DNA of 64,000 nucleotides from a virus: the IMG/VR virus record IMGVR_UViG_3300035682_000025, positions 8,042 through 72,041 of that record. The stretch is one strand, 5' to 3'. Below the pieces are notes generated by a model. It saw only the letters and a list, made by a program, of their open reading frames with translations. It made no database searches and was not told where the DNA came from. A program made the translations under genes and the position numbers. This document shows, in pieces, positions 3,270-31,443 of this stretch (positions are counted from its first letter, which is position 1; each line of letters opens with the position of its first letter).

Positions 3270-3279
3270 CCATAAATAT
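3270..3279 (+). promoter_or_regulatory. T4-type late promoter (CCATAAATAT) upstream of gp15
   Basis: ATAAATA core sits 20 nt upstream of the AGGAG RBS of the gp15 homolog. The same motif precedes gp18, gp19, gp21, gp22, gp23 and all three HEGs. Confidence 0.55.
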
Positions 3280-3297
3280 ATCGAATTAGGAGAATAA

Positions 3298-4098
3298 ATG
3301 CCAATTGTAAATCACTTTTATAATGGAACAACGCGGCGCTACATCGCGTTGTTCGGTTCACTATTCAATAAGATGAGTCTGACTCGTGACGATAACGCAG
3401 GCAATGAAATACAGAGAATGGTCGTTCCTATTTCATACGGACCATTTCAGAAGTTCTTGGCAAAGCTTATTCAAGATCCAGATTTGTCAAAAATTTCAGC
3501 TGTCACTCTTCCAAGAATGTCATTTGAAATTGTGTCAATGTCTTATGATGGCCCAAGAAAGACAAACAGCCGCAATACGATATCAACCAATGACGGCGCT
3601 TCTGTATTCTCTCCTGCTCCATACAATATAGAGTTTAGTCTGTATATCATGACAAAATATGCAGAAGATGGAACTAAGATTATAGAGCAAATTATCCCAT
3701 TCTTCAAGCCAGAATATACATATAGCGCTTATGTTCTTGATAATGCGCCTGCTATGGATATTCCATTGGTGCTAAATAGTGTTAGTATAGAAGATTTATA
3801 CGAAGGTGACTTTGAGACTCGCCGAACTATGATGTGGACATTAACATTCACGATGAAAGCTTGGTATTTTGGCCCAGTTCGGGAAAAGAAGCATATCAAA
3901 TTTGTAGATGTTCGATCATATACACAAATGGAACAGGGTGGCGGTTCTATTATTACGGTTCAGCCTGGATTGACCGTGAATGGCGATCCAACTAATGATA
4001 TAACTGAAACAATACCATTCCAAGAAATTGAGATTGATGATGATTGGGGTGTAATCACAATAGTAGAGGATTTAGAATATGACGGCAATCAGCAATGA
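3298..4098 (+). CDS. gp15: Tail sheath stabilizer / tail completion protein (T4 gp15 homolog)
   Basis: Blocks conserved with T4 gp15: FYNGTTRRYIALFGSLF, TLPRMSFEIVSMSYD, KIIEQIIPFFKPEY. 266 aa. Confidence 0.85.
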   Translation: MPIVNHFYNGTTRRYIALFGSLFNKMSLTRDDNAGNEIQRMVVPISYGPFQKFLAKLIQDPDLSKISAVTLPRMSFEIVSMSYDGPRKTNSRNTISTNDGASVFSPAPYNIEFSLYIMTKYAEDGTKIIEQIIPFFKPEYTYSAYVLDNAPAMDIPLVLNSVSIEDLYEGDFETRRTMMWTLTFTMKAWYFGPVREKKHIKFVDVRSYTQMEQGGGSIITVQPGLTVNGDPTNDITETIPFQEIEIDDDWGVITIVEDLEYDGNQQ

Positions 4099-4561
4099 TC
4101 CGATTGAAATGGCTCTTGGATTGAGACCCGTTGAAGATGCTATTGAATATACCGACTATAGCAATGCGTCAGCTAGCGATACAGCGGGCTCCATATCCGT
4201 CACTACTGCCACCATGCCAGCGTTGATTGCCGCTAATGCTGACGAAGATGACACGGTACAGGACATTGAACTTGCTAGGTCTAATATAAAGAACATCATA
4301 GAGCAGGGAGATGATGCGCTCAAAGAGATGATCAATCTTGCAAAGCAGTCAGAAAGCCCAAGAGCCTATGAAGTTGCCTCAACCCTGATGAAGACGCTTC
4401 TTGATGCAAACAAAGACTTTGTGGAAATGTCTACGAAGAAAAAGTATGCCAAAGAAGAAATACTTCACCCGAAAGACGAAGCAGCTACGACGAATGTTAC
4501 CAATAATAACCTGATTCTGTCAACCGCAGATTTGTTGAAGATGCTAAAGGGTGATGAATGA
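4079..4561 (+). CDS. gp16: Terminase small subunit (T4 gp16-like)
   Basis: 160 aa ORF between gp15 and gp17 homologs, overlapping both (ATGA overlap with TerL), acidic, size matches T4 gp16. RBS GAGGA upstream. Confidence 0.6.
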   Translation: MTAISNDPIEMALGLRPVEDAIEYTDYSNASASDTAGSISVTTATMPALIAANADEDDTVQDIELARSNIKNIIEQGDDALKEMINLAKQSESPRAYEVASTLMKTLLDANKDFVEMSTKKKYAKEEILHPKDEAATTNVTNNNLILSTADLLKMLKGDE

Positions 4562-6156
4562 ATATCGGGTACAACGGCAATTCAAATCTAAAAAAATCGG
4601 ACACACCTGTTGAGTGGACTCAAGAGCTTATTCAAGAATTTGCAAAGTGTGCAGCTGATCCGGTCTACTTTGCAAAGACATATATCAAGATTGTTCATGT
4701 TGACAGAGGGCTTATCCCGTTTGATATGTATGACTATCAAGAAGAAATTGTTGAGAAAATTACAAACAATCGCCGTGTTGCTGTTCTCACTGCTAGACAG
4801 TCTGGCAAGACCACCACAGCAGTTGCTGTCATTCTGCACTACATCCTATTCAATGAGTTCAAGACAGTTGCTATTCTTGCTAACAAGGGTGATGCTGCGA
4901 CCGAAGTTCTTAGCCGAATCAAACTTGCTTATGAGGCACTTCCTGCTTGGCTTCAACAGGGAGTCGAAGAATGGAACAAGACCTATATCACACTTGAAAA
5001 TGGATGCAAGATCTATGCAGGAACAACATCATCTTCTGCTATTCGTGGTAAGGCTGTAAGCTTCCTCTACCTAGACGAAGTTGCGTTCATTGAAGGGTAT
5101 GATGAATTCTTCGCATCTGTCTATCCTACCATATCATCTGGTGAGACTACCAAACTTCTCATGACATCTACCCCTAACGGGATGAATCATTTTTGGAAAA
5201 CATGTAAGGGTGCTGAAGAGGGAACGAATGGATACAAGTTTGTTCGGGTCATGTGGTATGATGTTCCGGGTCGTGGTGAAGCATGGCAACAGGAGACTAT
5301 AGAAGCACTCGACCATGACCAAGAAAAGTTCAATCAAGAATATTGCTGTCAATTTATCGGCAGTTCTGGAACCCTTATCTCTGGCCACAAGCTAAAAGAA
5401 CTTTCTCCATTTAGGCCAATTGCTCAGAGTGATGGACTACTACAATACGAGCGACCAGAAGCCGACAACACCTATGCCATTATCGTTGATGTGTCAAGAG
5501 GAAAGGGATTAGACTATTCCGCATTCTCTGTTATTGACATTACAAAAATGCCATATAAACAGGTATGTACATTTAGAGATAACATGATTGGCGTTGTGGA
5601 TTATTCTTCTGTGGTTCACAATATTGCTAAACTTTACAATGAAGCATATCTACTAATAGAAATAAATGATATTGGCGGCCAAATAGCAGATATATTGTAT
5701 TTAGATTATGGATATGAAAACATGGTATTTACTGAGAATGCTGGGCGAACCGGAAAAAGGGTTTCCGGCGGCTTTGGGAAAAATGTTGACAGGGGTATCC
5801 GTACAACTAAATCAGTGAAGTCGGTTGGGTGTTCCGTATTGAAGATGCTAATTGAACAGAACCAATTGATTGTCACTGACTTCAACACAATACAGGAGCT
5901 ATCTAGGTTTTCTCGTAAGGCGCTGTCATATGAAGCCGAATCTGGCGCTACCGATGACTTGGTAATGGGACTAGTTCTTTTTGCCTGGTTAAGCGATCAG
6001 TCTTACTTTAGAGACTTGACTGATATCAATACAATGGCAGCTCTGAGAGAGAAAACAGAAGAAGAAATCGAGAGCGACTTATTGCCCTTTGGATTCATAA
6101 ACAATGGCATTGACGATGATGATGCACCCGTAGTTCGACATGCAAACTGGCTTTGA
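4558..6156 (+). CDS. gp17: Terminase large subunit (T4 gp17 homolog)
   Basis: Walker A VLTARQSGKTT, Walker B LYLDE, C-terminal nuclease region. 532 aa, T4-like synteny. Confidence 0.9.
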   Translation: MNIGYNGNSNLKKSDTPVEWTQELIQEFAKCAADPVYFAKTYIKIVHVDRGLIPFDMYDYQEEIVEKITNNRRVAVLTARQSGKTTTAVAVILHYILFNEFKTVAILANKGDAATEVLSRIKLAYEALPAWLQQGVEEWNKTYITLENGCKIYAGTTSSSAIRGKAVSFLYLDEVAFIEGYDEFFASVYPTISSGETTKLLMTSTPNGMNHFWKTCKGAEEGTNGYKFVRVMWYDVPGRGEAWQQETIEALDHDQEKFNQEYCCQFIGSSGTLISGHKLKELSPFRPIAQSDGLLQYERPEADNTYAIIVDVSRGKGLDYSAFSVIDITKMPYKQVCTFRDNMIGVVDYSSVVHNIAKLYNEAYLLIEINDIGGQIADILYLDYGYENMVFTENAGRTGKRVSGGFGKNVDRGIRTTKSVKSVGCSVLKMLIEQNQLIVTDFNTIQELSRFSRKALSYEAESGATDDLVMGLVLFAWLSDQSYFRDLTDINTMAALREKTEEEIESDLLPFGFINNGIDDDDAPVVRHANWL

Positions 6157-6188
6157 TTGCCAGAGAAGCTTGACTCAAAGCGAGAAAA

Positions 6189-6198
6189 TCATAAATAA
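6189..6198 (+). promoter_or_regulatory. T4-type late promoter (TCATAAATAA) upstream of gp18
   Basis: ATAAATA core about 50 nt upstream of the sheath gene start. Confidence 0.5.
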
Positions 6199-6249
6199 CT
6201 AAAAGAAGATTGAGCAATCAAAACAACCCGTCAAAAGGAGACAAAACAC

Positions 6250-8130
6250 ATGGTTTTTTCCGTTAGTCCATCCATTACAGTAAGAGAAGTTGACCTTACT
6301 ACTACCGTTCCTGCTATTACAACTCCGCCTGCTGCTATTGCTGGCGTGTTCAATTGGGGGCCAGTCAATGAAAGAGTTTTGATTTCTTCTGAAATTGAGC
6401 TCGCAAATATATTCGGAAAGCCAACAGACGATAATTATGAAACATTTTTCTCGGCTGCTGACTTTCTATCATATTCTAACGCATTGTATGTCACCCGCGT
6501 TGTTTCTGATACCGCAAATACAGCAAGTTCAACTTACTTTGAAGCAAAATATCCAGGTGAGCTTGGTAATTCTTTAGCAGTATCTGTCGTCACTGCTGCC
6601 AATGATGATATAGAAGACCCGATTGCTTTTAGTGCTCCTGCTTGGACCGCAACTAAAGTTGTTGGGACGGTATCGGAGCTTCAGACAAACCCCGCAGACG
6701 AGGTCGCTGGAATGGCGTTTGGAACAACAGTTCTATATGTTACGACCTTAGCAGCAACACTAGATATCAAATCTGATGATGTTATCCACATATCTTCCGA
6801 CATATATGGCGCACAGGAAATTTCTGTATCCAATTTTGACGATAATATCACAAATGCAAACACAACTCCATACATTCATAAGATTACGCTATCTGGAAAA
6901 TATACACTACCAGAAACCGATCCAACTGATTTGACTTTCAGCCGCAGATGGGGATTTTCTAGTGCAGTTGGTGCAGCTCCTTCTGCTGGTCGTATGCATA
7001 TTATAGTGTATGATAACGATGGTAATATTACAGGTACTGCTGGCCAGATCATTGAAAAGTATGAAAATGTTTCGGCCGAACCTACTTCTAAACTAGCAGA
7101 CGGCACGAACAACTACTATAAGGATGTTCTCAGCACAAAATCATCTTATATCGTCGCTTTGGATTCAACCTCAATTGATACTGAAGACCAATTGCGTCAA
7201 GGCGACGTGCTCGCATCTGGCGCGAATGGTGAAAGCGAAAGCGAGATTGTTCTTGGCAAAATTGCGCAGGGATATGACCTATATAAAGAAGCTAACGAGG
7301 TTGATGTTTCATTTGCAATTCAAGGAAGACCATCTCTGAATCTTGCGAATTATCTGATTTCAAATCTGGCTGAATATCGCAAGGATTGTATGGTATTTGT
7401 TTCTCCAACTAAAGCTGATGTTGTTGATGTTGCATCACCACAGACACAGTTGACGAATATTCTTGCTTATCGCGCCGACCTTCAGAATTCTTCCTATTGG
7501 TTCATGGATTCTGGTTACAAGTATCGCTATGACAAGTACAATGATGTATTTCGTTGGGTTCCTCTGAATGGGGATATGGCTGGTCTTGCCTCACTTGTTC
7601 AGCCATGGGAGTCGCCAGCTGGTTATAGAAAGGGTCGCGTTCGTAATGTGATCAAACTCGCATTCAATCCAAATAAGGCTCAGCGCGATCAGCTATATGG
7701 AAAAGATGTCAACCCAGTCATTACACAATCTGGCCAGGGAACAATTCTTTTTGGTGACAAGACTGGATTTGGCACCGCAACCGGAAGCGCGTTTACTCGC
7801 ATCAATGTCCGTCGCTTGTTCATCACGGTGGAAAAGGCAATTGCTACAATATCTGCTCAACTATTGTTTGAATTCAATGACGAATTCACGCAAAATCAGT
7901 TTCGTCAGATTGTTGACCCATTCCTTCGTGACATTCAGGGTCGCCGTGGTATTATTGACTTCCGTGTTGTTTCGGATGCAACCGTGAACACCCCACAGAT
8001 AATCGATATGAACACTTTCCGTGCAAACATCTTTATCAAACCTTCACGTTCCATAAATTACATCGAATTGACTTTTGTGGCAACCAGAACTGGCGTTGAA
8101 TTTGAAGAGATTGTCGGCCAACAGTTCTGA
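6250..8130 (+). CDS. gp18: Tail sheath protein (T4 gp18 homolog)
   Basis: Strong conservation with T4 gp18, e.g. YRYDKYNDVFRWVPLNGDMAGL, SPAGYRKGRVRNVIKLA, AQRDQLYGKDVNPV, TRINVRRLF, INYIELTFVATRTGVEFEE. Confidence 0.9.
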   Translation: MVFSVSPSITVREVDLTTTVPAITTPPAAIAGVFNWGPVNERVLISSEIELANIFGKPTDDNYETFFSAADFLSYSNALYVTRVVSDTANTASSTYFEAKYPGELGNSLAVSVVTAANDDIEDPIAFSAPAWTATKVVGTVSELQTNPADEVAGMAFGTTVLYVTTLAATLDIKSDDVIHISSDIYGAQEISVSNFDDNITNANTTPYIHKITLSGKYTLPETDPTDLTFSRRWGFSSAVGAAPSAGRMHIIVYDNDGNITGTAGQIIEKYENVSAEPTSKLADGTNNYYKDVLSTKSSYIVALDSTSIDTEDQLRQGDVLASGANGESESEIVLGKIAQGYDLYKEANEVDVSFAIQGRPSLNLANYLISNLAEYRKDCMVFVSPTKADVVDVASPQTQLTNILAYRADLQNSSYWFMDSGYKYRYDKYNDVFRWVPLNGDMAGLASLVQPWESPAGYRKGRVRNVIKLAFNPNKAQRDQLYGKDVNPVITQSGQGTILFGDKTGFGTATGSAFTRINVRRLFITVEKAIATISAQLLFEFNDEFTQNQFRQIVDPFLRDIQGRRGIIDFRVVSDATVNTPQIIDMNTFRANIFIKPSRSINYIELTFVATRTGVEFEEIVGQQF

Positions 8131-8141
8131 GAATAAATATA
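8131..8141 (+). promoter_or_regulatory. T4-type late promoter (GAATAAATATA) upstream of gp19
   Basis: ATAAATA core 24 nt upstream of the gp19 start, followed by RBS AGGAG. Confidence 0.5.
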
Positions 8142-8163
8142 GCAAACAACAGGAGATAACGAT

Positions 8164-8700
8164 ATGAGCTTCTCAATAAATCAATTTAAGTCTGAACTAG
8201 TGGGGGGTGGTGCGCGCCCCTCACTCTTCCAAGTTCAAATCACAAACCCAATTCTTGGTGTCGCTGACTTCAAAGTTCCATTCATGGTAAAAGCAGCTGC
8301 GCTTCCTGCTTCTACTCTTGGAACTTATGTCGTGCCATATTTTGGCCGTGACATCAAATACGCTGGAGACAGAACTTTCGAAGATTGGGAAGTGACGATA
8401 ATCAACGATGAAGACTTCTCAATTCGCAATGCTATGGAAGCATGGTCAAACGCAATCAATTCGCACATTTCAAATACGAGAGCACTTCCACAGCAGTATA
8501 AATCTGACGCCATCATTACACAATATGGCAAAGACGGGCAGACTCTTCGCATCTATAACTTCCAAGGCATACATCCACTAACTATAGGTAGTATTGCGAT
8601 GCAATGGGATACAAAAGATACTATTGAAGAATTTACCGTATCATTCCAGTACGATCTTTGGAATATTGTTGGTGGAACCACCGGAAATCCTATAACCTGA
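8164..8700 (+). CDS. gp19: Tail tube protein (T4 gp19 homolog)
   Basis: ARPSLFQV, AAALPAS, AGDRTFEDWEVTIINDED, SDAIITQYGKDG and EEFTVSFQYDLW blocks match T4 gp19. Confidence 0.9.
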   Translation: MSFSINQFKSELVGGGARPSLFQVQITNPILGVADFKVPFMVKAAALPASTLGTYVVPYFGRDIKYAGDRTFEDWEVTIINDEDFSIRNAMEAWSNAINSHISNTRALPQQYKSDAIITQYGKDGQTLRIYNFQGIHPLTIGSIAMQWDTKDTIEEFTVSFQYDLWNIVGGTTGNPIT

Positions 8701-8719
8701 TATAAGAGGTCTATATAAT

Positions 8720-10384
8720 ATGCAACTTTTTGGCTACGAGATCCTCAGAAAACGGGATAAAGAAGAACAACCAAAATCCTTTGCGCCGCCGTTGAATGAC
8801 GACGGCGCAGTAAACGTAGAATCCACCGCTGTTGGTGGAGCCTACGGCTACTTTCTGGACATTGAAGGATCTGCAAAAACAGAATCCGAGTTAGTTACGC
8901 GCTATAGGTCTATGGCACTTCAGCCAGAAATCCAGCAGGCAGTTGATGAAATTGTCAACGAGGCTATCAACATTGATTATAATGAAAGAGCTGCCGAGAT
9001 TGTGTTGGAAGAGACTGAGCTTCCTTCTAAAGTCAAGGAAGTCATAGCTGAAGAATTTGATAATATTCTTCGTCTGCTGGACTTTTCAAATCAAGGCTAT
9101 GAAATATTCCAAAGATTCTTCGTTGATGGTCGTATCAACTATCATGTTATCATAGATGAGAAAAATGTCAACAAAGGAGTTGTCGAACTTCGGTATCTTG
9201 ACCCAAGAAAAATTCGACTCATTCGTGAAAGTGATTCCACCGAAAGAGATAAGAATACTGGTGTTCCTTTCCGCAAGATAAAAAAGGAATACTACATGTA
9301 TTCCGAAACTGGGTTTGGATCAGCTACGAGCCGGGCTGGCGGAGATATGCAATCCATTACTGGATTTCGTATCGCCAAAGACTCTATTGCTCGCGTTACA
9401 TCTGGATTGATGAATGAGACCCAGACGCTTGTGCTATCTCACTTACATAGAGCAATCAAACCACTAAACCAGCTTCGAGTTCTAGAAGATGCGACGATCA
9501 TCTATACTCTAACAAGAGCACCAGAGCGGCGCGTTTTCTATGTTGACGTTGGTAACTTGCCAAAGGCGAAGGCAGAGCAATATCTCGCTGACATGATGGC
9601 TCGTCACAAGAACAAACTAAACTATAACTCGGCAACTGGCGAAGTTGGTGACACTCGTAAATTCATGACTATGACGGAAGATTTTTGGTTCCCTCGCCGT
9701 GAAGGAAACAGATCAACCGAAGTTGATACCCTACCTGGTGGTGGAGCTGCCTTTGGTGACAACGATAACCTTGCTTATTTTCAGAAGAAACTATATAAAT
9801 CACTTGGCGTTCCGGTATCACGACTTGAACCAGAGACTATGTATTCATTTGGTCGTGTTTCTGAAATGACTAGAGATGAACTTCGCTTCTCAAAGTTTAT
9901 TCGCCGTTTGCGTGTCCGATTCTCTATCCTATTTGATACTATTCTAGAAAAGCAGCTTATTCTAAAGGGCATTCTAACGCCAGAAGAATGGCTTGAAATC
10001 AAGGATAAAATACGCTACGATTTTATGAAAGACAATTATTTTGAAGAACTAAAACAGATGGAAATTCTTCGCGAGAAAGTTTCCATGCTTCGTGATATTG
10101 ATGATAATGTTGGTAAATACTTCTCTCGTAACTGGGTGCAAAAACATGTGCTGTTTATGAATGACGAAACCATTGAAGAAATGACAGCCGAAATAGATGC
10201 CGAACGCGCTGCTGGGATCTATCGCGACCCAGATGAGCCACCTCCAGAAGATGCTCTACCACCAGAGGATGATGGTGCTGGCGAGGCACCTCCAGAGGAT
10301 GAGCCAACAGAAGAGCAGAACAATTTATTGATAAATAGCACAAAGTTTGACAAATATAAACAAAGTCGGAGAAAATTCAGATGA
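8720..10384 (+). CDS. gp20: Portal vertex protein (T4 gp20-like)
   Basis: 554 aa ORF at the gp20 position between tail tube and prohead protease. Acidic Pro/Glu-rich C-terminus. Confidence 0.75.
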   Translation: MQLFGYEILRKRDKEEQPKSFAPPLNDDGAVNVESTAVGGAYGYFLDIEGSAKTESELVTRYRSMALQPEIQQAVDEIVNEAINIDYNERAAEIVLEETELPSKVKEVIAEEFDNILRLLDFSNQGYEIFQRFFVDGRINYHVIIDEKNVNKGVVELRYLDPRKIRLIRESDSTERDKNTGVPFRKIKKEYYMYSETGFGSATSRAGGDMQSITGFRIAKDSIARVTSGLMNETQTLVLSHLHRAIKPLNQLRVLEDATIIYTLTRAPERRVFYVDVGNLPKAKAEQYLADMMARHKNKLNYNSATGEVGDTRKFMTMTEDFWFPRREGNRSTEVDTLPGGGAAFGDNDNLAYFQKKLYKSLGVPVSRLEPETMYSFGRVSEMTRDELRFSKFIRRLRVRFSILFDTILEKQLILKGILTPEEWLEIKDKIRYDFMKDNYFEELKQMEILREKVSMLRDIDDNVGKYFSRNWVQKHVLFMNDETIEEMTAEIDAERAAGIYRDPDEPPPEDALPPEDDGAGEAPPEDEPTEEQNNLLINSTKFDKYKQSRRKFR

Positions 10385-11850
10385 AGACATTCAAGCAGTT
10401 GATTGCAGAAGTCGCTCAGCCAAATAACGATGATGAGCTCAATTTCAAAGAAAAGCATACCATCGAAGTTATTGACAACGATAAACCATTTCCTACAGTG
10501 AAGAGAAGCCCACGTCGCAGAGCAGATTACGACGAAGGCGAGGATGAAGTAGTATATGAAGCATCGAAGCTTGACCCTGTTGGAAAGGCTGATGCTGATA
10601 TTGACAATGATGGCGATACAGACAATTCGGATGAGTTTCTACATGCTCGTCGCAAGGCAATCGCTAAAGCAATGAAGAAAGAAGCCCTTGATCTAAGAGA
10701 GAAGGCAGTTTCGCAGGCGCAACAGCAAGCCGCTGGTGTAGCGCTAGCTGTGAAGCGCGGAGACAAGCCAAAGTCTGCTCTCATTGGTGCATCCAAAGAG
10801 ATGTATAAAATGTCTGAGAAAGACTTGGAAGATTTTGCAAAAACGAAGCACAAGGGTCTTCCAGAAAAGATTACAGAAGCTAGTGATAGCAAAATCATCG
10901 CTTCGATCAATGCTGGTGATTCCATTGATGTTACGGTTCAAAAGAACCTGAACCGCAAAGGTGACAACAAAGACGAAATTCTCAAAGTCATTCGCGACTA
11001 CAATTGGAAGAAGCGTATGAAGAAAGAAGAAGTCGGTCAGATCGATGAAGCTGTTGCTGGTCCACAAGACTGCTGGCCCGGTTACAGAAAAGTCGGTACT
11101 AAAATGGGTACAGGCAGAAATACCGGCAATAGAGTGAACGATTGCGAAAAACTTGACGAAGATGCAACACTTGACCAAATCCGTGCTATTCTAACAAAAA
11201 AGAATGACGGAACAAAAGTAGTCAAGGATAAGTCTGGATACTTTCATATCAAAACAGCAAACTCCCACAAGGGACCATTTCATACAATGAAAGATGTTCT
11301 CAAAGATTTGAGTGAAAGCACAAAAAACCTTGGCGAGGCACTTCCAGCACATCTTGTTCGTGGTGATAGCTATGTTGGTATTCCAGATGGAATCGTTGCT
11401 CAGGCAAAAGAAAGAGTTAGACGTCTGAAACCAGCTACATCAAGTGAACATTATGAACAGATGCATAAAGCACTTTCTGACCTTGGTTGGGAGATGACTG
11501 TAGGTGGTAAGTATGTAAGAGAGGGAGCTTTTGTTGCAAAAGCAGCTAGTGCATATGTCGCAGGAAAGAAGAAATTCAAACTTGATGATGAAGAATTTCC
11601 AGTAACGATAAAGCCATCTACTGCTAAGAAGATAGTCAAAGAAAATGCAACCCTCACTGAAACTTTCAAAGTTGGTGCTGTCAAACTGAATGACGGTTCT
11701 TCTATCATCATCAAAGAGCAAGATGCAAAAATATTGAACCAACTGGTCAAAGAACTAAGTGGGCCAAATCGCGAAGCAATGATGACCGCTGCGATGAAGG
11801 ATAAGACTGGTTTCAATGAAATTCTAGGATTTGCGAAGGAGGCATTGTGA
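10381..11850 (+). CDS. Hypothetical head-morphogenesis cluster protein (possible prohead core/internal protein)
   Basis: 489 aa, highly charged (K/E/D), DADIDNDGDTDNSDE acidic cluster. ATGA overlap with portal gene. Occupies the gp67/gp68 position. Confidence 0.6.
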   Translation: MKTFKQLIAEVAQPNNDDELNFKEKHTIEVIDNDKPFPTVKRSPRRRADYDEGEDEVVYEASKLDPVGKADADIDNDGDTDNSDEFLHARRKAIAKAMKKEALDLREKAVSQAQQQAAGVALAVKRGDKPKSALIGASKEMYKMSEKDLEDFAKTKHKGLPEKITEASDSKIIASINAGDSIDVTVQKNLNRKGDNKDEILKVIRDYNWKKRMKKEEVGQIDEAVAGPQDCWPGYRKVGTKMGTGRNTGNRVNDCEKLDEDATLDQIRAILTKKNDGTKVVKDKSGYFHIKTANSHKGPFHTMKDVLKDLSESTKNLGEALPAHLVRGDSYVGIPDGIVAQAKERVRRLKPATSSEHYEQMHKALSDLGWEMTVGGKYVREGAFVAKAASAYVAGKKKFKLDDEEFPVTIKPSTAKKIVKENATLTETFKVGAVKLNDGSSIIIKEQDAKILNQLVKELSGPNREAMMTAAMKDKTGFNEILGFAKEAL

Positions 11851-12098
11851 TGATGATAATCAAGCCACTAGACGAAGAAACTTCCATAACAACAGCTGAT
11901 GATATGAATGGTGCTCGCCTTGTTCGTGTATACGCTGCAGCAGTCTCAAAAGTTACAATAGAAAATCCAGCAGCAAACACTGTCGTTGGCTCATTCACCG
12001 TTCCTGCTGGATCTACTACAATTGTGGAAAAGAATGGGACAGACACTATCGCCGGTTCTACTACGCTTCTTTGTACAGCTGTATCGTACAAGTCATAA
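11847..12098 (+). CDS. Small hypothetical protein in head module (possible prohead core component)
   Basis: 83 aa, ATGA-coupled to upstream gene, located between portal and prohead protease. Confidence 0.5.
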   Translation: MMMIIKPLDEETSITTADDMNGARLVRVYAAAVSKVTIENPAANTVVGSFTVPAGSTTIVEKNGTDTIAGSTTLLCTAVSYKS

Positions 12099-12101
12099 GA
12101 A

Positions 12102-12112
12102 TCATAAATAAA
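12102..12112 (+). promoter_or_regulatory. T4-type late promoter (TCATAAATAAA) upstream of gp21
   Basis: ATAAATA core 25 nt upstream of the gp21 start. Confidence 0.5.
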
Positions 12113-12135
12113 AGAAAACAACCGGAGAAACCATA

Positions 12136-12912
12136 ATGGCATTGCTGATTACAGAAGTATTCAACGAAGATTGCGAAGTGCTTGTTGAAGCAAATGAGAA
12201 CGGCTCTAAGTCGCATTACATCAATGGTATCTTCATGCAGGGTGATATCAAGAACCGTAATGGTCGTGTATATCCTTCTGATATGCTTGAGAAAGAGATG
12301 AAAAGATACAATGAGCAGTTCGTCAAGACGAAAAGAGCTCTTGGCGAACTAGGTCATCCAGATGGCCCACAAATCAATGGTGATCGTGTTTCACATCTAA
12401 TCACTGAAATGAAAAGAGACGGTTCCAATTTCGTTGGTAAGGCAAAGATCCTTTCTACACCAATGGGAAACATTGTCAAGACATTTATTGATGAGGGTGT
12501 AAAAATTGGAGTATCTACTCGTGGTCTTGGTTCTGTCAAGACCACAAAAGAAGGAATTATGGAAGTTCAAAATGACTTCCATCTTGCAACCGTTGATATT
12601 GTTACTGACCCAAGTGGTCCAGACTGCTTTGTTCAGGGAATAATGGAAAACACCCAATACTACTTTGATATTGCTACTGCATCTTGGAGACAATCCGCTG
12701 ATACCATAGTAGCAGAAGCAACTGAGATGGGCGCTAGTTCTATGGATGCTTGCGTATCACCCGATCAGTTCAACGAGGCTATGGATCGTATCCAGATGCT
12801 TGAAGACACTATTCGTTCTATCAAAGAGTCATTTAGCAAACCGTCAAAGAAAATTGATGAAGCTAAAGCTCTACAGATCTTTGAAACGTATATGTCAACA
12901 CTGAAAAACTGA
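12136..12912 (+). CDS. gp21: Prohead core protease (T4 gp21 homolog)
   Basis: INGIFMQGDIKNRNGRVYP, ALGELGHP and GVSTRGLGS match T4 gp21. Confidence 0.85.
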   Translation: MALLITEVFNEDCEVLVEANENGSKSHYINGIFMQGDIKNRNGRVYPSDMLEKEMKRYNEQFVKTKRALGELGHPDGPQINGDRVSHLITEMKRDGSNFVGKAKILSTPMGNIVKTFIDEGVKIGVSTRGLGSVKTTKEGIMEVQNDFHLATVDIVTDPSGPDCFVQGIMENTQYYFDIATASWRQSADTIVAEATEMGASSMDACVSPDQFNEAMDRIQMLEDTIRSIKESFSKPSKKIDEAKALQIFETYMSTLKN

Positions 12913-12915
12913 ATA

Positions 12916-12926
12916 TAATAAATAGT
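12916..12926 (+). promoter_or_regulatory. T4-type late promoter (TAATAAATAG) upstream of gp22
   Basis: ATAAATA core about 35 nt upstream of the scaffold gene. Confidence 0.5.
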
Positions 12927-12960
12927 TATGAAATCGCAAAAAACAAGAAGGAGTTTCTAA

Positions 12961-13923
12961 ATGGCAGAAAACCTAGAAGAAAAGAAGATGTCCGCTGATG
13001 GCCAATCTTCCGTTGAAGATCCAGTGAGCCCTGCTGGTGGTGAACCAAAGCAGAGCCCAACTGGTGCTGATACAAAGAAAAAGGTTGATCCAAACGCTGA
13101 CACAGTTGCTGATGGCGTTACAAAAGTTACCAAGAACGCTGAAAAAGCTGTTGAATTCGCAGAAGAAGTCGAGCTAGAAGAGCATGTCGGTATCTCTGGT
13201 CTATTTGAAGGTCTTGACCTTTCGGAAGACTTCAAAGCAAGAGCAGAGCTCGTATTCGAAGCTGCTGTCAATGAAGCTGCTACCGTCAAAGCAAAATCAA
13301 TTGTTGAATCTGTTGAGGCTGATCTACAGGAACAGTTTAGCAATTCTCTGAATGAGTCTCTAGAAGAAATCGTTGAAAATCTAGATTCATACCTTGACTA
13401 TGTTGTTCAAGAGTGGATGTCAGAAAATGAAGTTGCTATTGAAGCTGGCATCAAAGTAGAGATGGCTGAATCCTTCATGGATGGGCTAAAGGAACTCTTC
13501 TATGAGCATAATGTCAAGATTGATGAAGATACGATTGACGTGGTTGCTGAACTCGAAGAAGAAGTTGCAGCTGCTAAAGAAGCTGCAAATCGCGCTATCA
13601 TCGAAAGCATCGGCATCAACGAAGAACTACAAACTCTTCGTGCTGAGCGCGAATTTTCTAACATGACTGAAGGACTTTCACAGTCTCAAGTTGAACGTTT
13701 TCGTGTTCTATCAGAGAAACTGAATAGTTCAGATATCGCTTCCTACAAGCAAGACCTTGCTACTATCAAGGAATCTTTCTTCAAGAAAACAAACAGTGCG
13801 ACAGCCGTCAAGGATCTTGATGAAGCTGCTGGTGAGTTTATCATTGAAGAAGTTATTCCAGTCAAGAAATCCGGCGATGCTTCCATTAATGCTTATGCTG
13901 AATTTCTGAATAACATGAAATAA
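12961..13923 (+). CDS. gp22: Prohead scaffold protein (T4 gp22-like)
   Basis: 320 aa, very acidic and alpha-helical, at the gp22 position between protease and major capsid protein. Confidence 0.7.
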   Translation: MAENLEEKKMSADGQSSVEDPVSPAGGEPKQSPTGADTKKKVDPNADTVADGVTKVTKNAEKAVEFAEEVELEEHVGISGLFEGLDLSEDFKARAELVFEAAVNEAATVKAKSIVESVEADLQEQFSNSLNESLEEIVENLDSYLDYVVQEWMSENEVAIEAGIKVEMAESFMDGLKELFYEHNVKIDEDTIDVVAELEEEVAAAKEAANRAIIESIGINEELQTLRAEREFSNMTEGLSQSQVERFRVLSEKLNSSDIASYKQDLATIKESFFKKTNSATAVKDLDEAAGEFIIEEVIPVKKSGDASINAYAEFLNNMK

Positions 13924-13931
13924 TAAATAAC
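13921..13931 (+). promoter_or_regulatory. T4-type late promoter (TAATAAATAA) upstream of gp23
   Basis: ATAAATA core 38 nt upstream of the major capsid protein start, RBS AAGGAGA. Confidence 0.55.
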
Positions 13932-13966
13932 TAAGTAAACACAAACCATCAAGGAGAGACAAAGAA

Positions 13967-15286
13967 ATGAGTCAAAACAATCGTTTCCTAGTAGAAAAGT
14001 GGAAGCCAGTTCTGGACCACGAAAAATTCGGCCGTATCGGTGATGATTATCGCCGTGGCGTTACTGCAACAATTCTAGAGAACACACAGAACGCTCTGCG
14101 CGAAGACCGCACCGCAGTTTCTATGACGTCTCTCTTGAGCGAAACAACAAACAACACCTACGGCGCTGGCGCTGGTGCTGCTGGATTTAGTTCTGGTGCA
14201 GAGGCTAGCGGTCCAACCGCTGGTTATGACCCAATCCTAATCAGCTTGGTTCGTCGTTCCATGCCTAACCTGATTGCTTACGATATCGCTGGTGTTCAGC
14301 CGATGACTGGTCCAACCGGACTTATCTTCGCGATGCGCTCCAAGTATACTGCAATGGCTGGTAACACTTCAACAGAAGCTTTCTACGGCGAAGCAAACAC
14401 CGCGTTCTCTGGAACCGGAACACCAAACTCCGCTGGTCTTCCAACCAACGCAAACTTCGGTACTGCTATGAGAACTGAAGTAGGCGAAACTCTTGGTACT
14501 GGCGGCAACCCATTCGGCGAAATGGCTTTCTCAATCGAAAAAGTCGCTGTCGAAGCAAAGACCCGCGCATTGAAAGCAGAATACACCACTGAACTTGCAC
14601 AAGACCTCAAGGCAGTTCATGGTCTGGACGCTGAGACAGAACTTGCAAACATCCTTTCTTCTGAAATCCTTGTTGAAATCAACAGAGAAGTTGTTCGTAC
14701 AATCTATAGTTCTGCTGTTCAGGGTTCTCAGGGAACCGCTGTAAACGGTACATTCGATCTTGACGTTGACGCAAATGGCCGTTGGTCAGTTGAGAAGTTC
14801 AAGGGTCTGATGTTCCAGATTGAGAAAGAAGCTAACGCAATTGCTAAGGCAACTCGTCGCGGCAAGGGTAACATCGTTATCTGTTCTTCTGATGTTGCTT
14901 CTGCACTTCAGATGGCTGGTATCCTTGATTACACTCCTGCTCTAAACTCTAACAATCTACAGGTAGATGATACCGGCAATACTTTCGCTGGTGTTCTGAA
15001 CGGCCGCTTCCGCGTATACATCGACCCATACGCTGGTTCAAACTACCTGGTTGTTGGTTACAAGGGCTCATCCGCGTTTGACGCTGGTATTTTCTACTGC
15101 CCATACGTTCCACTACAGATGGTTCGTGCTATCGGCGAAGATACCTTCCAGCCAAAAATTGGCTTCAAGACCCGCTACGGCATGGTCGCGAACCCATTCG
15201 CTGGTGGCGCTACTCAAGGTATGGGTGCTATCTCTGCTGCATCAAACGTGTACTACAGAAAAGTTATTGTATCAAATCTGTTCTGA
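13967..15286 (+). CDS. gp23: Major capsid protein (T4 gp23 homolog)
   Basis: AYDIAGVQPMTGPTGLIFAM and other blocks characteristic of the T4 gp23 family. 439 aa. Confidence 0.9.
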   Translation: MSQNNRFLVEKWKPVLDHEKFGRIGDDYRRGVTATILENTQNALREDRTAVSMTSLLSETTNNTYGAGAGAAGFSSGAEASGPTAGYDPILISLVRRSMPNLIAYDIAGVQPMTGPTGLIFAMRSKYTAMAGNTSTEAFYGEANTAFSGTGTPNSAGLPTNANFGTAMRTEVGETLGTGGNPFGEMAFSIEKVAVEAKTRALKAEYTTELAQDLKAVHGLDAETELANILSSEILVEINREVVRTIYSSAVQGSQGTAVNGTFDLDVDANGRWSVEKFKGLMFQIEKEANAIAKATRRGKGNIVICSSDVASALQMAGILDYTPALNSNNLQVDDTGNTFAGVLNGRFRVYIDPYAGSNYLVVGYKGSSAFDAGIFYCPYVPLQMVRAIGEDTFQPKIGFKTRYGMVANPFAGGATQGMGAISAASNVYYRKVIVSNLF

Positions 15287-15321
15287 TAAAAGAACTCGGA
15301 AACAACCGAGTCAAACTAAAG

Positions 15322-15349
15322 GGGCGGAACTTCGGTTCCGCCTTTTTTT
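15322..15349 (+). terminator. Rho-independent terminator after the major capsid gene
   Basis: GGCGGAAC-TTCG-GTTCCGCC stem-loop followed by T7 run. Confidence 0.8.
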
Positions 15350-15404
15350 ATTGCTAAGTCAAAAACTATTTTCAGTTTCTTCTTATCGTAAGCAACTTAC
15401 TCTA

Positions 15405-15480
15405 ATAAATAGAAGTATAGGTCGCGGAGGTCGAGTCCCACCTATTCTAGAACTATCATTTTTTGGAAGGAGTCCCAGCA
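15405..15480 (+). promoter_or_regulatory. HEG-associated late promoter plus conserved leader (copy A)
   Basis: ATAAATAGAAGT...TCGCGG...CTCTAGAACT...AAGGAG, conserved with copies upstream of the HNH (29687-29765) and second GIY-YIG (62183-62267) genes. Confidence 0.6.
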
Positions 15481-16302
15481 ATGTCTATTTATACTGGTTT
15501 TGTTTACATTTGGTTTGATCGCAAAAAGAAGTGGTTTTGTATTGGTTCTCACATGGGTAGTTTGGATGATGGTTATACCTCATCAACTGGTTTCATGAAA
15601 AAGGCATACAAAAAGCGACCAAATGACTTTAGACGAAAAATACTTGAGTTTTACTATGGAAACGACAGCAGAGAACTATTCTCTATTGAACAAAAGTATC
15701 TTGACATGATAAAGGATGCAGAACTTTGTCTTGGTGAAAATAAGACAAATGGAACCATAAGATATTACAATGTAAAGAAGAAAGCATTAGGAATTTCTGG
15801 TATAGCCGCTTCTGTTATAAAGAAAAGCTATTGGAATAGTGAAATTGGTAGAAAAAAGAAGATGGAAATGAGTGAAAACATGAAGAAAAATAATCCATCA
15901 AAAAAGGGCGCGGTTCCTTGGAATAAAGGAAAGCGTTGTCCGTCAATTTCAATTGCAAAACTTGGAAAATCTATGAACTATACAGAAGAACAACGAAATC
16001 GTAGATCGGAAAGGTCCAAAGAGTTATGGGCCGATCCAGAATATCTAGAAAAAATGCGCAACCGCAAAAGCCCAGACTATGAAAAAATAGCAGACAAAAT
16101 GCGCGGCCGAAATCACGACGAAGATACTAAGGCTCGCATATCAGAATCTTTGCTGGGAAAACAAAAGACAGAAGAACACAAACTGGCAATGAAAGTATCT
16201 GCTAAAACAAGAAACCCATTTACATGCCCGCATTGTGGATTTCAAGGAAGGGGTGGTCATCGCTATCACTTCAATAACTGCAAATCTTTTCCCAAAGAAT
16301 AA
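15481..16302 (+). CDS. GIY-YIG homing endonuclease (Seg-like) with NUMOD-type DNA-binding repeats and C-terminal Zn finger
   Basis: N-terminal GFVYIWFDR...KWFCIGS GIY-YIG motif. Repeated NPSKKGAVPWNKGK / HDEDTKARISES NUMOD3-like motifs. CPHCG...HRYHFNNC at C-terminus. True start is ATG 15481 with RBS GGAAGGAG (the track start is a TTG). Confidence 0.8.
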   Translation: MSIYTGFVYIWFDRKKKWFCIGSHMGSLDDGYTSSTGFMKKAYKKRPNDFRRKILEFYYGNDSRELFSIEQKYLDMIKDAELCLGENKTNGTIRYYNVKKKALGISGIAASVIKKSYWNSEIGRKKKMEMSENMKKNNPSKKGAVPWNKGKRCPSISIAKLGKSMNYTEEQRNRRSERSKELWADPEYLEKMRNRKSPDYEKIADKMRGRNHDEDTKARISESLLGKQKTEEHKLAMKVSAKTRNPFTCPHCGFQGRGGHRYHFNNCKSFPKE

Positions 16303-28980: not shown

Positions 28981-29019
28981 AAAAAAATAGTGCGGTGTCC
29001 GAGTAACAGACACCGCACT
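28981..29019 (-). terminator. Rho-independent terminator (minus strand)
   Basis: GTGCGGTGTC...GACACCGCAC 10-bp stem followed by a T7 run on the minus strand. Confidence 0.7.
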
Positions 29020-29081: not shown

Positions 29082-29669
29082 TCAATTTCCGGTTATCAAC
29101 TCATATATTTCTTTCCAGTTTGTCACACGTCTCACATCTTCATGATGATCATCAATATTATAATGATGAGACATCAAAATGGGCTTCATACCATGACCCA
29201 AACCCATCAAGGCATTTTTCATCAAATCTTCAATCCAAAAGCACCCAGTTCCTTCATATTCTTTCAGTAGTTCTTTTTTGTTCGATGAACTGCCACATAG
29301 GGTCAAGCGCTCAAATGCTGTCTTACCAAAGAGGTTGTGAATGTTTTCCATTCTGGCATCATACATATCGCGTGTATTTGGAATTGCGCTGATGCAATGG
29401 AACACATAGCCATGATCTTCGTGAAGTTTGCGGATGTATTTGATGGCGTCTTTGAATGGAGGCAAACTCCGCATGGCAGCACTTTCATTGAAAGCAGCTG
29501 CCAGCTCATCGCCTTCTTCTTTCGAGATGCCATATTTGTCTTCGATGCTGTAGAATCCGTTTATGGTTTCTTTGTACCCCTTGGACACCATTGACATGTG
29601 GAAACCGTGTTCCCAATACCCAATAACCCCATCGAAATCTGTGACAATCACATTGTCATAAGCAATCAT
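29082..29669 (-). CDS. HAD-superfamily phosphatase, 5-prime(3-prime)-deoxyribonucleotidase-like
   Basis: N-terminal motif I VIVTDFDGVI (DxDGV), 195 aa. Confidence 0.55.
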   Translation of the reverse strand: MIAYDNVIVTDFDGVIGYWEHGFHMSMVSKGYKETINGFYSIEDKYGISKEEGDELAAAFNESAAMRSLPPFKDAIKYIRKLHEDHGYVFHCISAIPNTRDMYDARMENIHNLFGKTAFERLTLCGSSSNKKELLKEYEGTGCFWIEDLMKNALMGLGHGMKPILMSHHYNIDDHHEDVRRVTNWKEIYELITGN

Positions 29670-29670
29670 T
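29641..29670. repeat. 30-bp perfect direct repeat, copy 1 (first 10 codons of HAD gene 29082..29669)
   Basis: gtgacaatcacattgtcataagcaatcatt is identical to 30710-30739. Confidence 0.9.
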
Positions 29671-29686
29671 CAATATCTCCATAATG

Positions 29687-29765
29687 ATAAATAGAAGTGT
29701 CAATCGCGGTAGTGCAAATACCCACTGACTCTAGAACTTGTCACCTAAAAGAAGGAGCTCCAGCA
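29687..29765 (+). promoter_or_regulatory. HEG-associated late promoter plus conserved leader (copy B)
   Basis: GATAAATAGAAGTGTCAATCGCGG...CTCTAGAACT...AAGGAGCTCCAGCAATG. Conserved with copies A and C. Confidence 0.6.
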
Positions 29766-30710
29766 ATGGATATTTATCCGATTCTAGCATCAAAGCCTCA
29801 TAGCGAACATCATCTCAATAGATATATCAGGTTTATTGAGCAATGTCAACAGAATAACAAAAAGTCTTCCATAAAAACACATAGGCATCATATTTGCCCA
29901 AGAGCAAAAGATATGTTTCCAGAATATGAGTCGTTCGCCAAGAACAAATGGAATATGGCACGACTGACGCCACGACAGCATTTCATCGCCCACATAATGT
30001 TGTGGAAAGTATATCCAAACATTTCTTCGCAGTTCAATGCTGTTTGGCAAATGAAACACAGAAATAACGAACAAATGAATTCGCGACTATATGAAAGCGT
30101 TCTATTAGAGCATAGCAGAGTAACCTCAGCTAGACTAAAAAATACGGTTTCTGTATATGATGCAAATGGTTTATTTCATCGTATTCCAGTAAGTGAATAT
30201 GACGAAAGTAAGCATACACCCATTTCTGCAAATAGAGTAGTAGCAAAAATGGATAGCGGTGATTATGTTGTGGTTTCTGTAGATGAGTTTCGTTCTAGAA
30301 CTGATTTACACGGAACAACAAAAAATACGAAAGCATGGAATGATGGAAATACTGTTATGTATTCTTACAAAAATCCTGGCCCTGGTTTTACGAGGGGTCA
30401 TTTACCCCTCTCGGATGAGCAGAAGAAAATTCGTAATGAAAAGACTCGACAGACTATATCAAAAAGAACATCAGAAGAAAATAAACTAATCAGTATAAAG
30501 AGCTCTCAAGCTAAAAGAGAGTATTATGCCAATCTCTCACCAGAAGAAAGAAAAAAGCCGCAAGAGTTCAAAGACAAGTTGTCGGAAATCAGGAAAGAAA
30601 GCAATCCGGGTTTCAGAGCAACTCACGCCTGCCCTACTTGCGGCAAAGAAGGTCAGAAAGCTAATATTTCAAAGCATCACGGTCTCAATGGCGAAAAGTG
30701 TAGATGGTAG
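29766..30710 (+). CDS. HNH homing endonuclease (free-standing, Mob-like)
   Basis: HHICPRA ... NMARLTPRQHFIAHIMLW HNH motif. Lys/Glu-rich C-terminal DNA-binding tail with CPTCG. Antisense to the surrounding operon. ATG 29766 with RBS AAGGAG. Confidence 0.8.
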   Translation: MDIYPILASKPHSEHHLNRYIRFIEQCQQNNKKSSIKTHRHHICPRAKDMFPEYESFAKNKWNMARLTPRQHFIAHIMLWKVYPNISSQFNAVWQMKHRNNEQMNSRLYESVLLEHSRVTSARLKNTVSVYDANGLFHRIPVSEYDESKHTPISANRVVAKMDSGDYVVVSVDEFRSRTDLHGTTKNTKAWNDGNTVMYSYKNPGPGFTRGHLPLSDEQKKIRNEKTRQTISKRTSEENKLISIKSSQAKREYYANLSPEERKKPQEFKDKLSEIRKESNPGFRATHACPTCGKEGQKANISKHHGLNGEKCRW

Positions 30711-30739
30711 TGACAATCACATTGTCATAAGCAATCATT
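30710..30739. repeat. 30-bp perfect direct repeat, copy 2 (pseudo-start MIAYDNVIVT after NT5C stop)
   Basis: Identical to 29641-29670. On the minus strand it reads TAA-A-ATGATTGCTTATGACAATGTGATTGTCAC, then runs into the HNH gene 3-prime end. Confidence 0.9.
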
Positions 30740-31210
30740 TTACAATCCCGTAATCTTGAAGATTTCCCGCAGTGTGTCAGCGGTGTTCTTGTGAACAATT
30801 GCGATGCCGCCGAGCTCTTTCCATGCCTTGCAGTTTTTTTCGAAGTCATCAATCAGAATGTCGCCAGGTTCGTGCATGAACAATGCTTTGTTCACTCCGC
30901 CCATCATCGGAATGACAGTAATGTCTTTGGATAGATGTTCCCGCACCCAAGCCCGTTTTTGAATAGCAGCATTTTTGTAGTTCGACTTTGGGCAAGCAGA
31001 CAGAATGGTAACATCAAAATTGTCAACCAATATGTTGAACATCCCCTTTGCATCTTTCATAAGCGGAAGGTTAGCGTAGAAGTCGTGGTAGCCGTTGATC
31101 ATCTTCCACATCACATCGTCGTCAAGCGTTTGTGGGTCAACGCCGAATTTTTCAACAAAGTGGGTGTCGAAGTCCGCCATCACGCCATCGAGGTCTAGGT
31201 AGATACGCAT
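30740..31210 (-). CDS. 5-prime(3-prime)-deoxyribonucleotidase (NT5C family, HAD superfamily)
   Basis: N-terminal IYLDLDGVMADFD is the NT5C signature, 156 aa. Confidence 0.65.
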   Translation of the reverse strand: MRIYLDLDGVMADFDTHFVEKFGVDPQTLDDDVMWKMINGYHDFYANLPLMKDAKGMFNILVDNFDVTILSACPKSNYKNAAIQKRAWVREHLSKDITVIPMMGGVNKALFMHEPGDILIDDFEKNCKAWKELGGIAIVHKNTADTLREIFKITGL

Positions 31211-31241: not shown

Positions 31242-31270
31242 CATCATAGGGCATATGTAGCTATGTGTCA
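31242..31270 (-). promoter_or_regulatory. Early promoter P7 (TTGACA-N17-TATGAT)
   Basis: Reverse complement reads TTGACAcatagctacatatgcccTATGATgattctgtaa. Shares the GATTCTGTAA downstream box with P11/P12. Confidence 0.5.
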
Positions 31271-31443
31271 AGCGCTATTCGTCGTCTTTCCCATCATATG
31301 ATGACATTTTTTCATTATTCTTTTGCCGCTGCTTCATTTTTCGCTCTTTCAGCCTGTCTTGTTTATTACGAATTTCATCGTCATCATTGATCCATTCGCC
31401 TTCGTATTGGTCTTCGCGAAAGTGACGAAACGACTTAGCCATT

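Follow-up and report, generated by a model that had tools for sequence, protein, structure and literature searches.

A 64,000-nucleotide (nt) stretch of viral DNA (IMG/VR record IMGVR_UViG_3300035682_000025, positions 8,042 to 72,041; hereafter the window) carries a free-standing homing endonuclease gene (HEG) that lies antisense inside a two-gene nucleotidase unit and is flanked by a perfect 30-nt direct repeat. The HEG (29766-30710, plus strand, 314 aa) separates a gene for an NT5C-type 5'(3')-deoxyribonucleotidase (30740-31210, minus strand) from one for a HAD-superfamily, NT5C-like phosphatase (29082-29669, minus strand), coordinates that an initial annotation of this DNA had given correctly for all three open reading frames (ORFs). 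Comparison with related loci makes it likely that the HEG is part of a cassette that homes into the start of the HAD gene, with the repeat consisting of the resident gene start, left behind as an orphan stub, and an imported replacement. HEGs of this class are known; what appears to be new from the sequences is a free-standing HEG with a preserved orphan-gene-end footprint that recurs across several target genes.

There are exactly two copies of the 30-mer GTGACAATCACATTGTCATAAGCAATCATT in the window, one forming the working 5' end of the HAD gene (29641-29670, minus strand) and one beside the NT5C gene (30710-30739). No third copy with three or fewer mismatches was found in the window, and 100 shuffles gave an expectation of zero. 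The exact repeat on either side of the HNH gene, as first described, is thereby reproduced, and its restriction to two copies in the window speaks against a longer generic intergenic repeat, which the initial annotation had named as a finding that would count against it. Read on the minus strand, each copy is made up of an A, the ATG and 26 further nt, which correspond to the base before the HAD start codon, the start codon, eight more codons and two nt of codon 10. Codon 10 is ACA in the HAD gene and ACT in the stub, both Thr, and both copies encode MIAYDNVIVT; the earlier wording, a start codon plus nine codons, is right for the peptide and off by one base for the DNA. Past the NT5C stop the minus strand reads TAA-A-ATG, with the stub copy starting one base beyond the TAA. 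The orphan stub (30685-30739, minus strand, ATG at 30736-30738) encodes MIAYDNVIVTTIYTFRH, a frame of 17 codons that runs antisense into the 3' end of the HEG and stops at 30685, again as originally reported. Catalytic motif I of the HAD protein (DFDGV) opens at codon 11, right after the repeated segment. Weak similarity persists past the 30 nt (8 of the next 15 nt), and because of this the original duplication is suggested to have also spanned the ribosome-binding-site region.

Among deposited phages, DNA searches of the phage collection with the 3.2-kb region as query turned up no close relative (nothing in near mode and only two short NT5C matches in distant mode), and the comparison was therefore built on metagenomic loci. 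A search of IMG/VR with the HAD protein gave 68 loci; this search, a DNA pattern drawn from the HEG leader and exact-protein look-ups were the productive routes, while the HEG protein as a query against viral contigs found no locus. The gene order RNaseH-DUF6433-(p55)-(NT5C)-HAD-p78-PhoH is kept in the closer relatives, as mapped by tblastn. A degenerate search for the string encoding HAD codons 5-10 showed the HAD 5' end once in each of the eight HEG-less loci and twice in six of the ten with a HEG; the two remaining loci with a stub, L081 and the neighbour class of L082, were missed by this search only through recoding of their working copies. HEG-less alleles had been predicted to hold one equivalent of the 30-mer, and a duplicated start in such genomes had been put forward as evidence to the contrary; the single copy in eight of eight relatives agrees with the prediction. 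In the HEG-less loci that have NT5C, its stop codon and the HAD start abut or overlap. The junction of the nearest relative, L006, reads ...GGAATGATTGCT with an ATGA overlap, and others read TAATG (L002), TGAAATATG (L008) and TAATATG (L011). The ancestral junction TAAAATG, which the initial annotation had deduced and which the stub would imply, thus holds as far as abutting or overlapping genes are concerned, but that exact string was found in no relative. The L006 locus (5001-5586) has HAD matches in two frames (residues 1-157 and 146-195) and an ORF cut to 170 aa, which is either a frameshift or an assembly error.

The HEG is found at the same position and in the same orientation in ten loci from independent assemblies, the window included, and these ten have their flanking genes in common with the eight HEG-less loci. 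The named HEG-bearing relatives are L005, L010, L076, L078, L079, L081, L082 and L083, all but the first two reached through exact-protein look-ups of homologues 52-83% identical. A stub of the HAD start lies between the upstream gene and the 3' end of the HEG in seven of the nine other loci, or eight of ten with the window, and homologous stubs are present in L076, L078, L079, L081, L083 and L010. In the five loci scored, 1 to 7 of the 27-30 compared nt differ between stub and working copy (3 of 30 nt in both L076 and L078, 7 of 30 in L079, 4 of 27 in L010), while in L083 and L081 the two copies are of different N-terminal types. All stubs break off at HAD codon 10-11, after VIVT or VIVTD and just short of the DxDG of motif I. 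The junction between stub and HEG takes three forms, ...ACWGAC-TAATYA-CTACCA, ...GTSAC-TACCA and ...GTWAC-CA, the second being the first minus 11 nt between two TTACT repeats and the third being the second minus TAC. As these variants differ by 11-nt and 3-nt deletions between short repeats, one founding junction with later erosion would suffice to explain them. The stub lies downstream of NT5C in most loci and downstream of a different small gene in L081; because the upstream gene there is not NT5C, the HAD start would have been the only left-hand homology for entry. In L005, positions 3448-5009 form one block of 1562 nt (NT5C, HEG and leader) that is extra relative to the nearest HEG-less locus (L004, 3328-3338), and NT5C seems, from this alignment, to have been carried in together with the HEG.

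Which of the two copies is resident can be judged from relatives in which they differ. DNA similarity divides the loci into three backbone groups, each with HEG-bearing and HEG-less members: the window and L076 with HEG-less L006 (group A), L010 and L083 with HEG-less L008 and L007 (group B), and L005 and L081 with HEG-less L004 (group C). The HEG-less HAD genes of groups B and C begin with a short type, MYDNV(IVT). In L083 and L081 the stub has this short form (MYDNVIVT), which is also that of their HEG-less relatives L008, L007 and L004, and the working HAD gene starts with a foreign long type, MN(A/T)YENVIVTD (MNAYEN in L083, MNTYEN in L081). Of 27 nt in the L010 stub, 26 are the same as in HEG-less L008, and the L010 working copy carries three substitutions (ATC GTC ACA GAT versus ATT GTT ACT GAT). 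The string ATYGTCACAGAT (GTCACA(GAT)) is found in the working copies of five HEG-bearing loci from groups A and B and in L078, and in none of the HEG-less loci. HAD identity, profiled in 60-nt windows against the nearest HEG-less relative, dips at the 5' end over the first 60-200 nt in HEG-bearing genomes: 68, 77, 80 and 80%, then 92-98%, for L005 and L004; 70 and 75%, then 95%, for L076 and L006; and likewise for L010 and L008. The HEG-less control pair L007 and L008 shows flat identity along the gene. In all compared pairs the 3' quarter of HAD is the most variable part. Possible signs of co-conversion are the 5' dips, the foreign N-termini of L081 and L083 and the shared GTCACAGAT signature, among relatives too divergent for fine mapping. 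Given the foreign N-terminal types and the lower 5' identity in the relatives, the stub would be the resident HAD start and the working start would have arrived with the HEG, a reading extended to the window by analogy. A resident stub and an imported start would in turn make the 30-nt repeat a footprint of break repair and not a transposon-type duplication. Of the initial claim of a target-site or flank duplication left by HEG acquisition, the acquisition footprint with its breakpoints preserved is therefore supported, and the target-site duplication in the transposon sense is not.

The proposed mechanism begins with a cassette made up of a NATAAATA box, a structured leader and the HEG ORF, all transcribed opposite to the neighbouring genes. 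The enzyme would cut a HEG-less HAD gene at about codon 10-11, within DNA encoding the VIVTD|xDG segment of motif I, and the break would be repaired by copying from a HEG-bearing genome, as in established T4 homing. To the right of the break, the copied tract would bring the HEG, the leader, the donor ribosome-binding site and the donor's first ~10 HAD codons into the gene and so restore an intact HAD; the HAD gene is indeed intact, and its 5' end is donor-like in relatives. To the left, the recipient's own HAD start would stay behind as an orphan stub fused to the 3' end of the HEG, and a stub in this position is what the sequence shows. In the founding event probably only one side of the break found homology, and the other was closed by illegitimate joining. 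This step is invoked because one-sided homology is known from experiments on T4 intron homing to lead to illegitimate break repair at microhomologies (PMC2988022), a review that sums up the 1999 work of Parker, Belisle and Belfort. The T4 work differs in being an experimental plasmid-phage system with introns, and the account there describes no natural products with retained gene-end stubs (PMC2988022). Once formed, the stub would serve as a built-in left homology arm reaching up to the break and allow entry into any genome with HAD, whatever lies upstream. With target-gene sequence at either edge, the cassette would then resemble an intron, and recombination between the repeats may allow precise loss of the HEG.

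Orphan gene ends are not confined to HAD but accompany related cassettes in at least four other genes. Other cassettes were found with a 24-nt motif from the leader and a looser 31-nt motif, and four more by look-ups of distant homologues. In L075 (11679-12994, OGVO01000094.1), where a thymidylate synthase gene follows DHFR, the order is thyA stub, antisense HNH HEG, leader and complete thyA; the 5' stub has 52 codons, a TTG start and the ending ...TTKKLAF*, and is ~70% identical in DNA to the first codons of the working copy. L085 (IMGVR_UViG_3300005611_000002) has a metallophosphoesterase gene that was entered at both ends. Its first HEG is accompanied by an 11-codon 5' stub, MSDIWVTSDSH*, which ends at the DxH motif, and its second by a displaced 3' fragment that starts at GHIHQN... 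(GHxH) and is still joined to the next gene; the 3' end of the working gene is recoded beyond recognition by BLASTN. Within 6068-8652 of that record the gene itself (7031-7582) sits between the two HNH HEG cassettes. Another metallophosphoesterase 5' stub (MRDIWVISDTH...) is found at ~3410-3460 of L088, and a DNA ligase 5' stub (MNSREKLYKIETL*) at ~3290-3380 of L090. In each of these loci the HEG runs opposite to the genes beside it. The orphan end is thus a recurrent feature of related HEGs at several target genes and not the one-off scar implied by the single clean case first described. Upstream of the L088 stub, native promoter-like and terminator-like sequences are kept, and the last HEG codons there are antisense to the stub. 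The short contig L074 (719-1425) holds the leader of a degenerate or partial HNH ORF followed by an ORF with only the C-terminal half of an RNA ligase (...EGFIVDFDGHKVKVK...), so that either a 3' part has been displaced or the gene is split.

Several points weigh against homing into the HAD start with a resident stub and an imported end. A clear stub is missing from L005, where only ATGATA is left, and from L082, where a hairpin takes its place. BLAST found no stub in L087 or L089, nor one beyond the HEG of a second cassette in the window at 62.2 kb, and inspection of ORFs showed no room for one beside a third at 15.4 kb. The window shows no clear 5' identity dip against L006, and its stub and working copy are identical over 30 nt, so donor and recipient are not assignable here; gene conversion between the two copies and a near-identical donor would look alike. 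The relatives are 72-92% identical in DNA, which makes the co-conversion tracts coarse. Cleavage and a break at the stub end are deduced from where the stubs stop, and the working copy would have to be immune to cutting.

Four other explanations can be weighed against this evidence. In the first, the order is reversed: the cassette would have entered at the NT5C/HAD boundary with the stub already on its 3' side, and the working start would be the resident copy. A direct repeat is by itself silent on the position of insertion within it, the two copies are identical in the window, and a stub once made does move with the HEG 3' end, since stub, junction and the 3' 190 nt of the HEG are the same in L083 and L010. 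We nonetheless regard this order as unlikely, as the stubs of L081, L083 and L010 are of local backbone type beside foreign working starts, HEG-bearing genomes show the 5' dip in HAD, and the leader and ribosome-binding-site region beside the working start are conserved across backbone groups. It is also possible, if quite improbable, that the stub is kept for a benefit to the phage, such as NT5C stop context, translational coupling or a small peptide, and is neither a repair footprint nor a homology arm. The stub does retain the native NT5C stop/ATG arrangement in all loci and has outlasted substantial divergence (7 of 30 nt differ in L079). Its ORF varies, however, from 17 codons in the window to nine codons and a stop in L010 and L083, with the HEG ORF reading into the stub in L079 and L081; moreover, it is found where the upstream gene is not NT5C (L081) and is gone from L005 and L082 while the neighbouring genes remain.

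A transposable element, with a staggered cut filled in on both sides of the inserted block, would account for a perfect direct repeat at its two edges in the window. This is very improbable and can be ruled out by the repeats themselves, which vary in length (~23-33 nt for HAD, ~170 nt for thyA, ~33 nt and ~115 nt for the phosphoesterase 5' and 3' ends), always span from the insertion point to the gene end, and differ between copies in other loci, even in the length of the encoded N-terminus. In addition, neither a transposase nor terminal inverted repeats are present at the locus, and the inserted ORF is homologous to the homing endonuclease MobE. Lastly, a chimeric assembly of HEG-bearing and HEG-less variants joined at the shared 30-mer has next to no likelihood: the window is indeed part of an assembled contig, and assemblers can be misled by short repeats, but seven further assemblies, made independently with other samples and pipelines (IMG/VR, ENA, Logan and NCBI), have the same architecture, with diverged stubs that a mis-join could not produce.

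The HEG encodes a protein that is accepted, on homology, as a MobE-like HNH nuclease. Its PHROG matches are phrog_655 (homing endonuclease) and phrog_12434 (HNH endonuclease, E 4e-13), and tblastn finds ORFs annotated as MobE, HNH or homing endonuclease at 26-35% identity. Residues H41, H42, N63, H72 and H76 are invariant across 42 homologues (alignment A1). The profile of this alignment matches T4 MobE in hhalign with a probability of 98.3% and an E of 1.8e-14 over 113 columns, pairing HHICPKA...N...LTPRQHFIAH of the HEG with HHIIPRC...N...LTAREHFIAH of MobE. The protein has no HNH model match in Pfam even at E 10 or in NCBIfam at E 0.1, and seems to belong to a MobE-like subgroup outside these profiles. 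A sequence search of the PDB with the HEG returned no nuclease, and neither did fold searches, in which the query was the whole elongated AlphaFold model; that model (pLDDT 83) places two strands and one helix around the conserved residues. This homology and a presence that varies among close relatives bear out the original call of an HNH homing endonuclease. The HEG is not housed in an intron or intein, as HAD and NT5C are intact on the opposite strand and no Rfam family was found in 29550-29850.

The layout of the protein is an N-terminal nuclease domain, a helical middle and a C-terminal Cys/His-rich domain. The last of these is common only to HEGs at the HAD site, and for this reason the C-terminal part may be read as a target-specific DNA-binding domain, which fits with an exchangeable nuclease domain. 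L083 and L010 have in common NT5C, stub, junction, the last 190 nt and first 13 nt of the HEG, the leader and HAD; between the shared parts of the HEG, L083 (3001-3939) has an HNH domain and L010 (4292-4903) an unrelated Seg-like N-terminal domain. The pair has the appearance of a catalytic domain exchanged in situ while the DNA-binding domain stayed the same. BLASTP of the L010 HEG against I-TevI was not significant, and it is therefore called only Seg-like, based on a phrog_314 match, database annotation and the N-terminal YxYxI...YYG.

The ~95 nt between the HEG and HAD are conserved more than the HEG itself. On the HEG strand they contain a T4-type late-promoter-like NATAAATA box, GATAAATA (29686-29693, plus strand, 72 nt upstream of the HEG start), followed by a ribosome-binding site and a start of the form M-x-I-Y. 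The box reads TATAAATA in most related cassettes. Its role as a promoter is inferred from sequence; NATAAATA boxes also stand 19-69 nt upstream of eight large plus-strand ORFs of the structural region (window 3272-15405). All three HEGs in the window are oriented like the structural genes, and two of them are surrounded by early minus-strand genes of the opposite orientation.

On the other strand, the leader forms a predicted two-hairpin element of 8 and 11 pairs (29690-29768, minus strand; RNAalifold, 93 bits with covariance model R1), which takes in the sequence complementary to the ribosome-binding site and start codon of the HEG. In an alignment of 15 sequences, 285 of 285 cells of the 19 pairs are standard (96% in shuffles, 27-45% for slid structures). 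The R1 model has three matches in the window and 22 in the loci, and across the 22 elements, aligned by fitting to the model, both sides have changed in 13 of 19 pairs, and 99.8% of cells are paired. Every R1 match examined lies directly upstream of an HNH or GIY-YIG-like HEG, except L076 259-331, which is followed by a frame without ATG. No Rfam family matches the leader. Wherever only one side of a pair has changed, the antisense strand reads G.U and the HEG strand would read A.C, and one pair is G.U throughout; a bias of this kind is unlikely to arise by chance from about ten independent changes. The window leader also folds to -22.7 kcal/mol on the antisense strand versus -13.0 on the HEG strand. 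Since both the wobble pairs and the stronger fold point to the antisense strand, selection seems to act on the strand of early transcripts that read backwards through the HEG. Our best guess is that the leader is a structured antisense RNA that silences the HEG until late infection. Three other roles were rejected. The leader is not solely a 5' UTR of the target gene, as no gene follows the 15.4-kb cassette on that strand; a sigma-70 promoter for HAD is excluded on inspection of the sequence, as transcription from a TATAAT at this place would begin level with or beyond the ribosome-binding site; and an operator that mimics the target, as in the I-TevI model, does not fit a leader that is shared by HEGs with different targets.

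The closest known counterparts of the HEG are T4 MobE and the other free-standing seg/mob HEGs known for intronless homing. The likeness extends to a homologous nuclease domain, a free-standing position in a nucleotide-metabolism cluster, sporadic presence among close relatives, apparent co-conversion of flanks and a late-promoter-like box, as well as a modular make-up of nuclease and target-specific DNA-binding domain (PMC2988022). The T4 free-standing HEGs are described as intergenic and cutting at a distance (PMC2988022), whereas the insertion here is inside a coding sequence and duplicates the displaced gene end. The HEG is also antisense to its neighbours, which in T4 is true only of segD. 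No phage report of orphan gene ends beside HEGs was found in PMC2988022 or in the searchable literature, where coverage of journals is partial and absence is unproven. In T6, the activity of SegB has been linked to duplication junctions at microhomologies (PMC13096335), although there a 718-bp unit is amplified in tandem under selection by a defence system, which is not a single orphan end beside an inserted HEG.

The nearest described parallel known to us is found in the 3'-end duplications of fungal mitochondria. A case of HEG-associated gene-end duplication in Allomyces atp6 was reportedly described by Paquin et al. in 1994. In fungal mitochondria, a conserved gene is invaded by an endonuclease ORF that brings along a new gene end, and the old end persists as a fragment close by, as with the C-terminal duplications of atp6 and cob beside GIY-YIG/LAGLIDADG ORFs (PMC6279837). 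The 3' case of the L085 phosphoesterase has exactly this layout. The fungal cases, however, involve 3' ends, often as in-frame fusions, and other nucleases in another genetic system, whereas the phage cases are mostly 5' ends with a new ribosome-binding site and an antisense HEG.

HEGs have other solutions to life in a coding sequence, including group I introns, inteins, the mobE-split nrdA of Aeh1 and T4 mobA with the gene 60 bypass. The cassettes described here have in common with these that a conserved coding target is occupied, the recognition site is broken and the host gene still works. Unlike them, they require no splicing, split protein or bypass; the duplicated end keeps the gene whole. 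They may thus represent a third natural route, besides splicing elements and split genes, by which a selfish nuclease can sit harmlessly in a coding sequence, and the stub as a homology arm could make the cassette independent of upstream gene context. Free-standing HEGs are usually pictured between genes, cutting at a distance, and their targets are hard to find without biochemistry. The stub places the interruption of the resident gene to within a few bases. The interruption point adjoins codons of a conserved motif in at least four of five cases, catalytic in three, the motifs being DxDG in HAD, DxH and GHxH in the phosphoesterase and TTKKLxF in thymidylate synthase. Orphan ends therefore offer directly testable target predictions for several enzymes and, if the reading is true, a sequence-only read-out of HEG target sites from metagenomes. 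The leader, common to HNH and GIY-YIG HEGs, would be an undescribed and testable regulatory element. Joining all of these elements gives a more speculative proposal, held tentatively and thought somewhat less likely to be right than wrong: that phage HEGs include distinct intron- and intein-free intragenic cassettes, which carry a spare target-gene end as both repair patch and portable homology arm, and a two-hairpin leader whose early read-through antisense RNA delays the HEG to late infection.

The NT5C-HAD unit and the rest of the genome provide the setting for the cassette. A sigma-70-like promoter (TTGACA-17-TATGAT, 11 of 12 matches, pattern match from a consensus scan only) lies just upstream of NT5C at 31243-31271 on the minus strand and is likely, by its sequence, to be the early promoter of the unit. 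An intrinsic-terminator-like hairpin of 13 pairs with a T run (28989-29019, minus strand, inverted repeat I7) closes the unit downstream of HAD, and with the promoter upstream of NT5C this puts the plus-strand HEG ORF inside a two-gene unit. The 156-aa NT5C protein matches PF06941 (E 5e-8) and phrog_2643 (5'-3' deoxyribonucleotidase, E 7e-46), and the intact 195-aa HAD protein, with its 68 homologous loci, matches PF06941 (E 3e-7) and phrog_420. The genome also encodes a major head protein, a Dda-like helicase, RNase H, PhoH and a PAAR protein, and is that of a T4-like aquatic myovirus.

The window's second cassette (62165-63233, plus strand) has a 321-aa Seg-like ORF at 62268-63233 that matches phrog_12131 and phrog_3339 and has the N-terminus YFYIIQD...GIYYAG. 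Its leader, CATAAATAGTAGTGTCAATCGCGG..., scores 68 bits with R1 at 62186-62270 and has compensatory changes in both hairpins, and the cassette is divergent from a 52-aa minus-strand gene at 62006-62164. The third cassette (15408-16302, plus strand) has a 273-aa Seg-like ORF at 15481-16302, with GFVYIWFD...CIGSH and a C-terminal CPHCG...HFNNC, and scores 62 bits with R1 at 15408-15483. It immediately follows the terminator of the major head protein gene (13967-15286), a position like that of T4 segD between genes 23 and 24.

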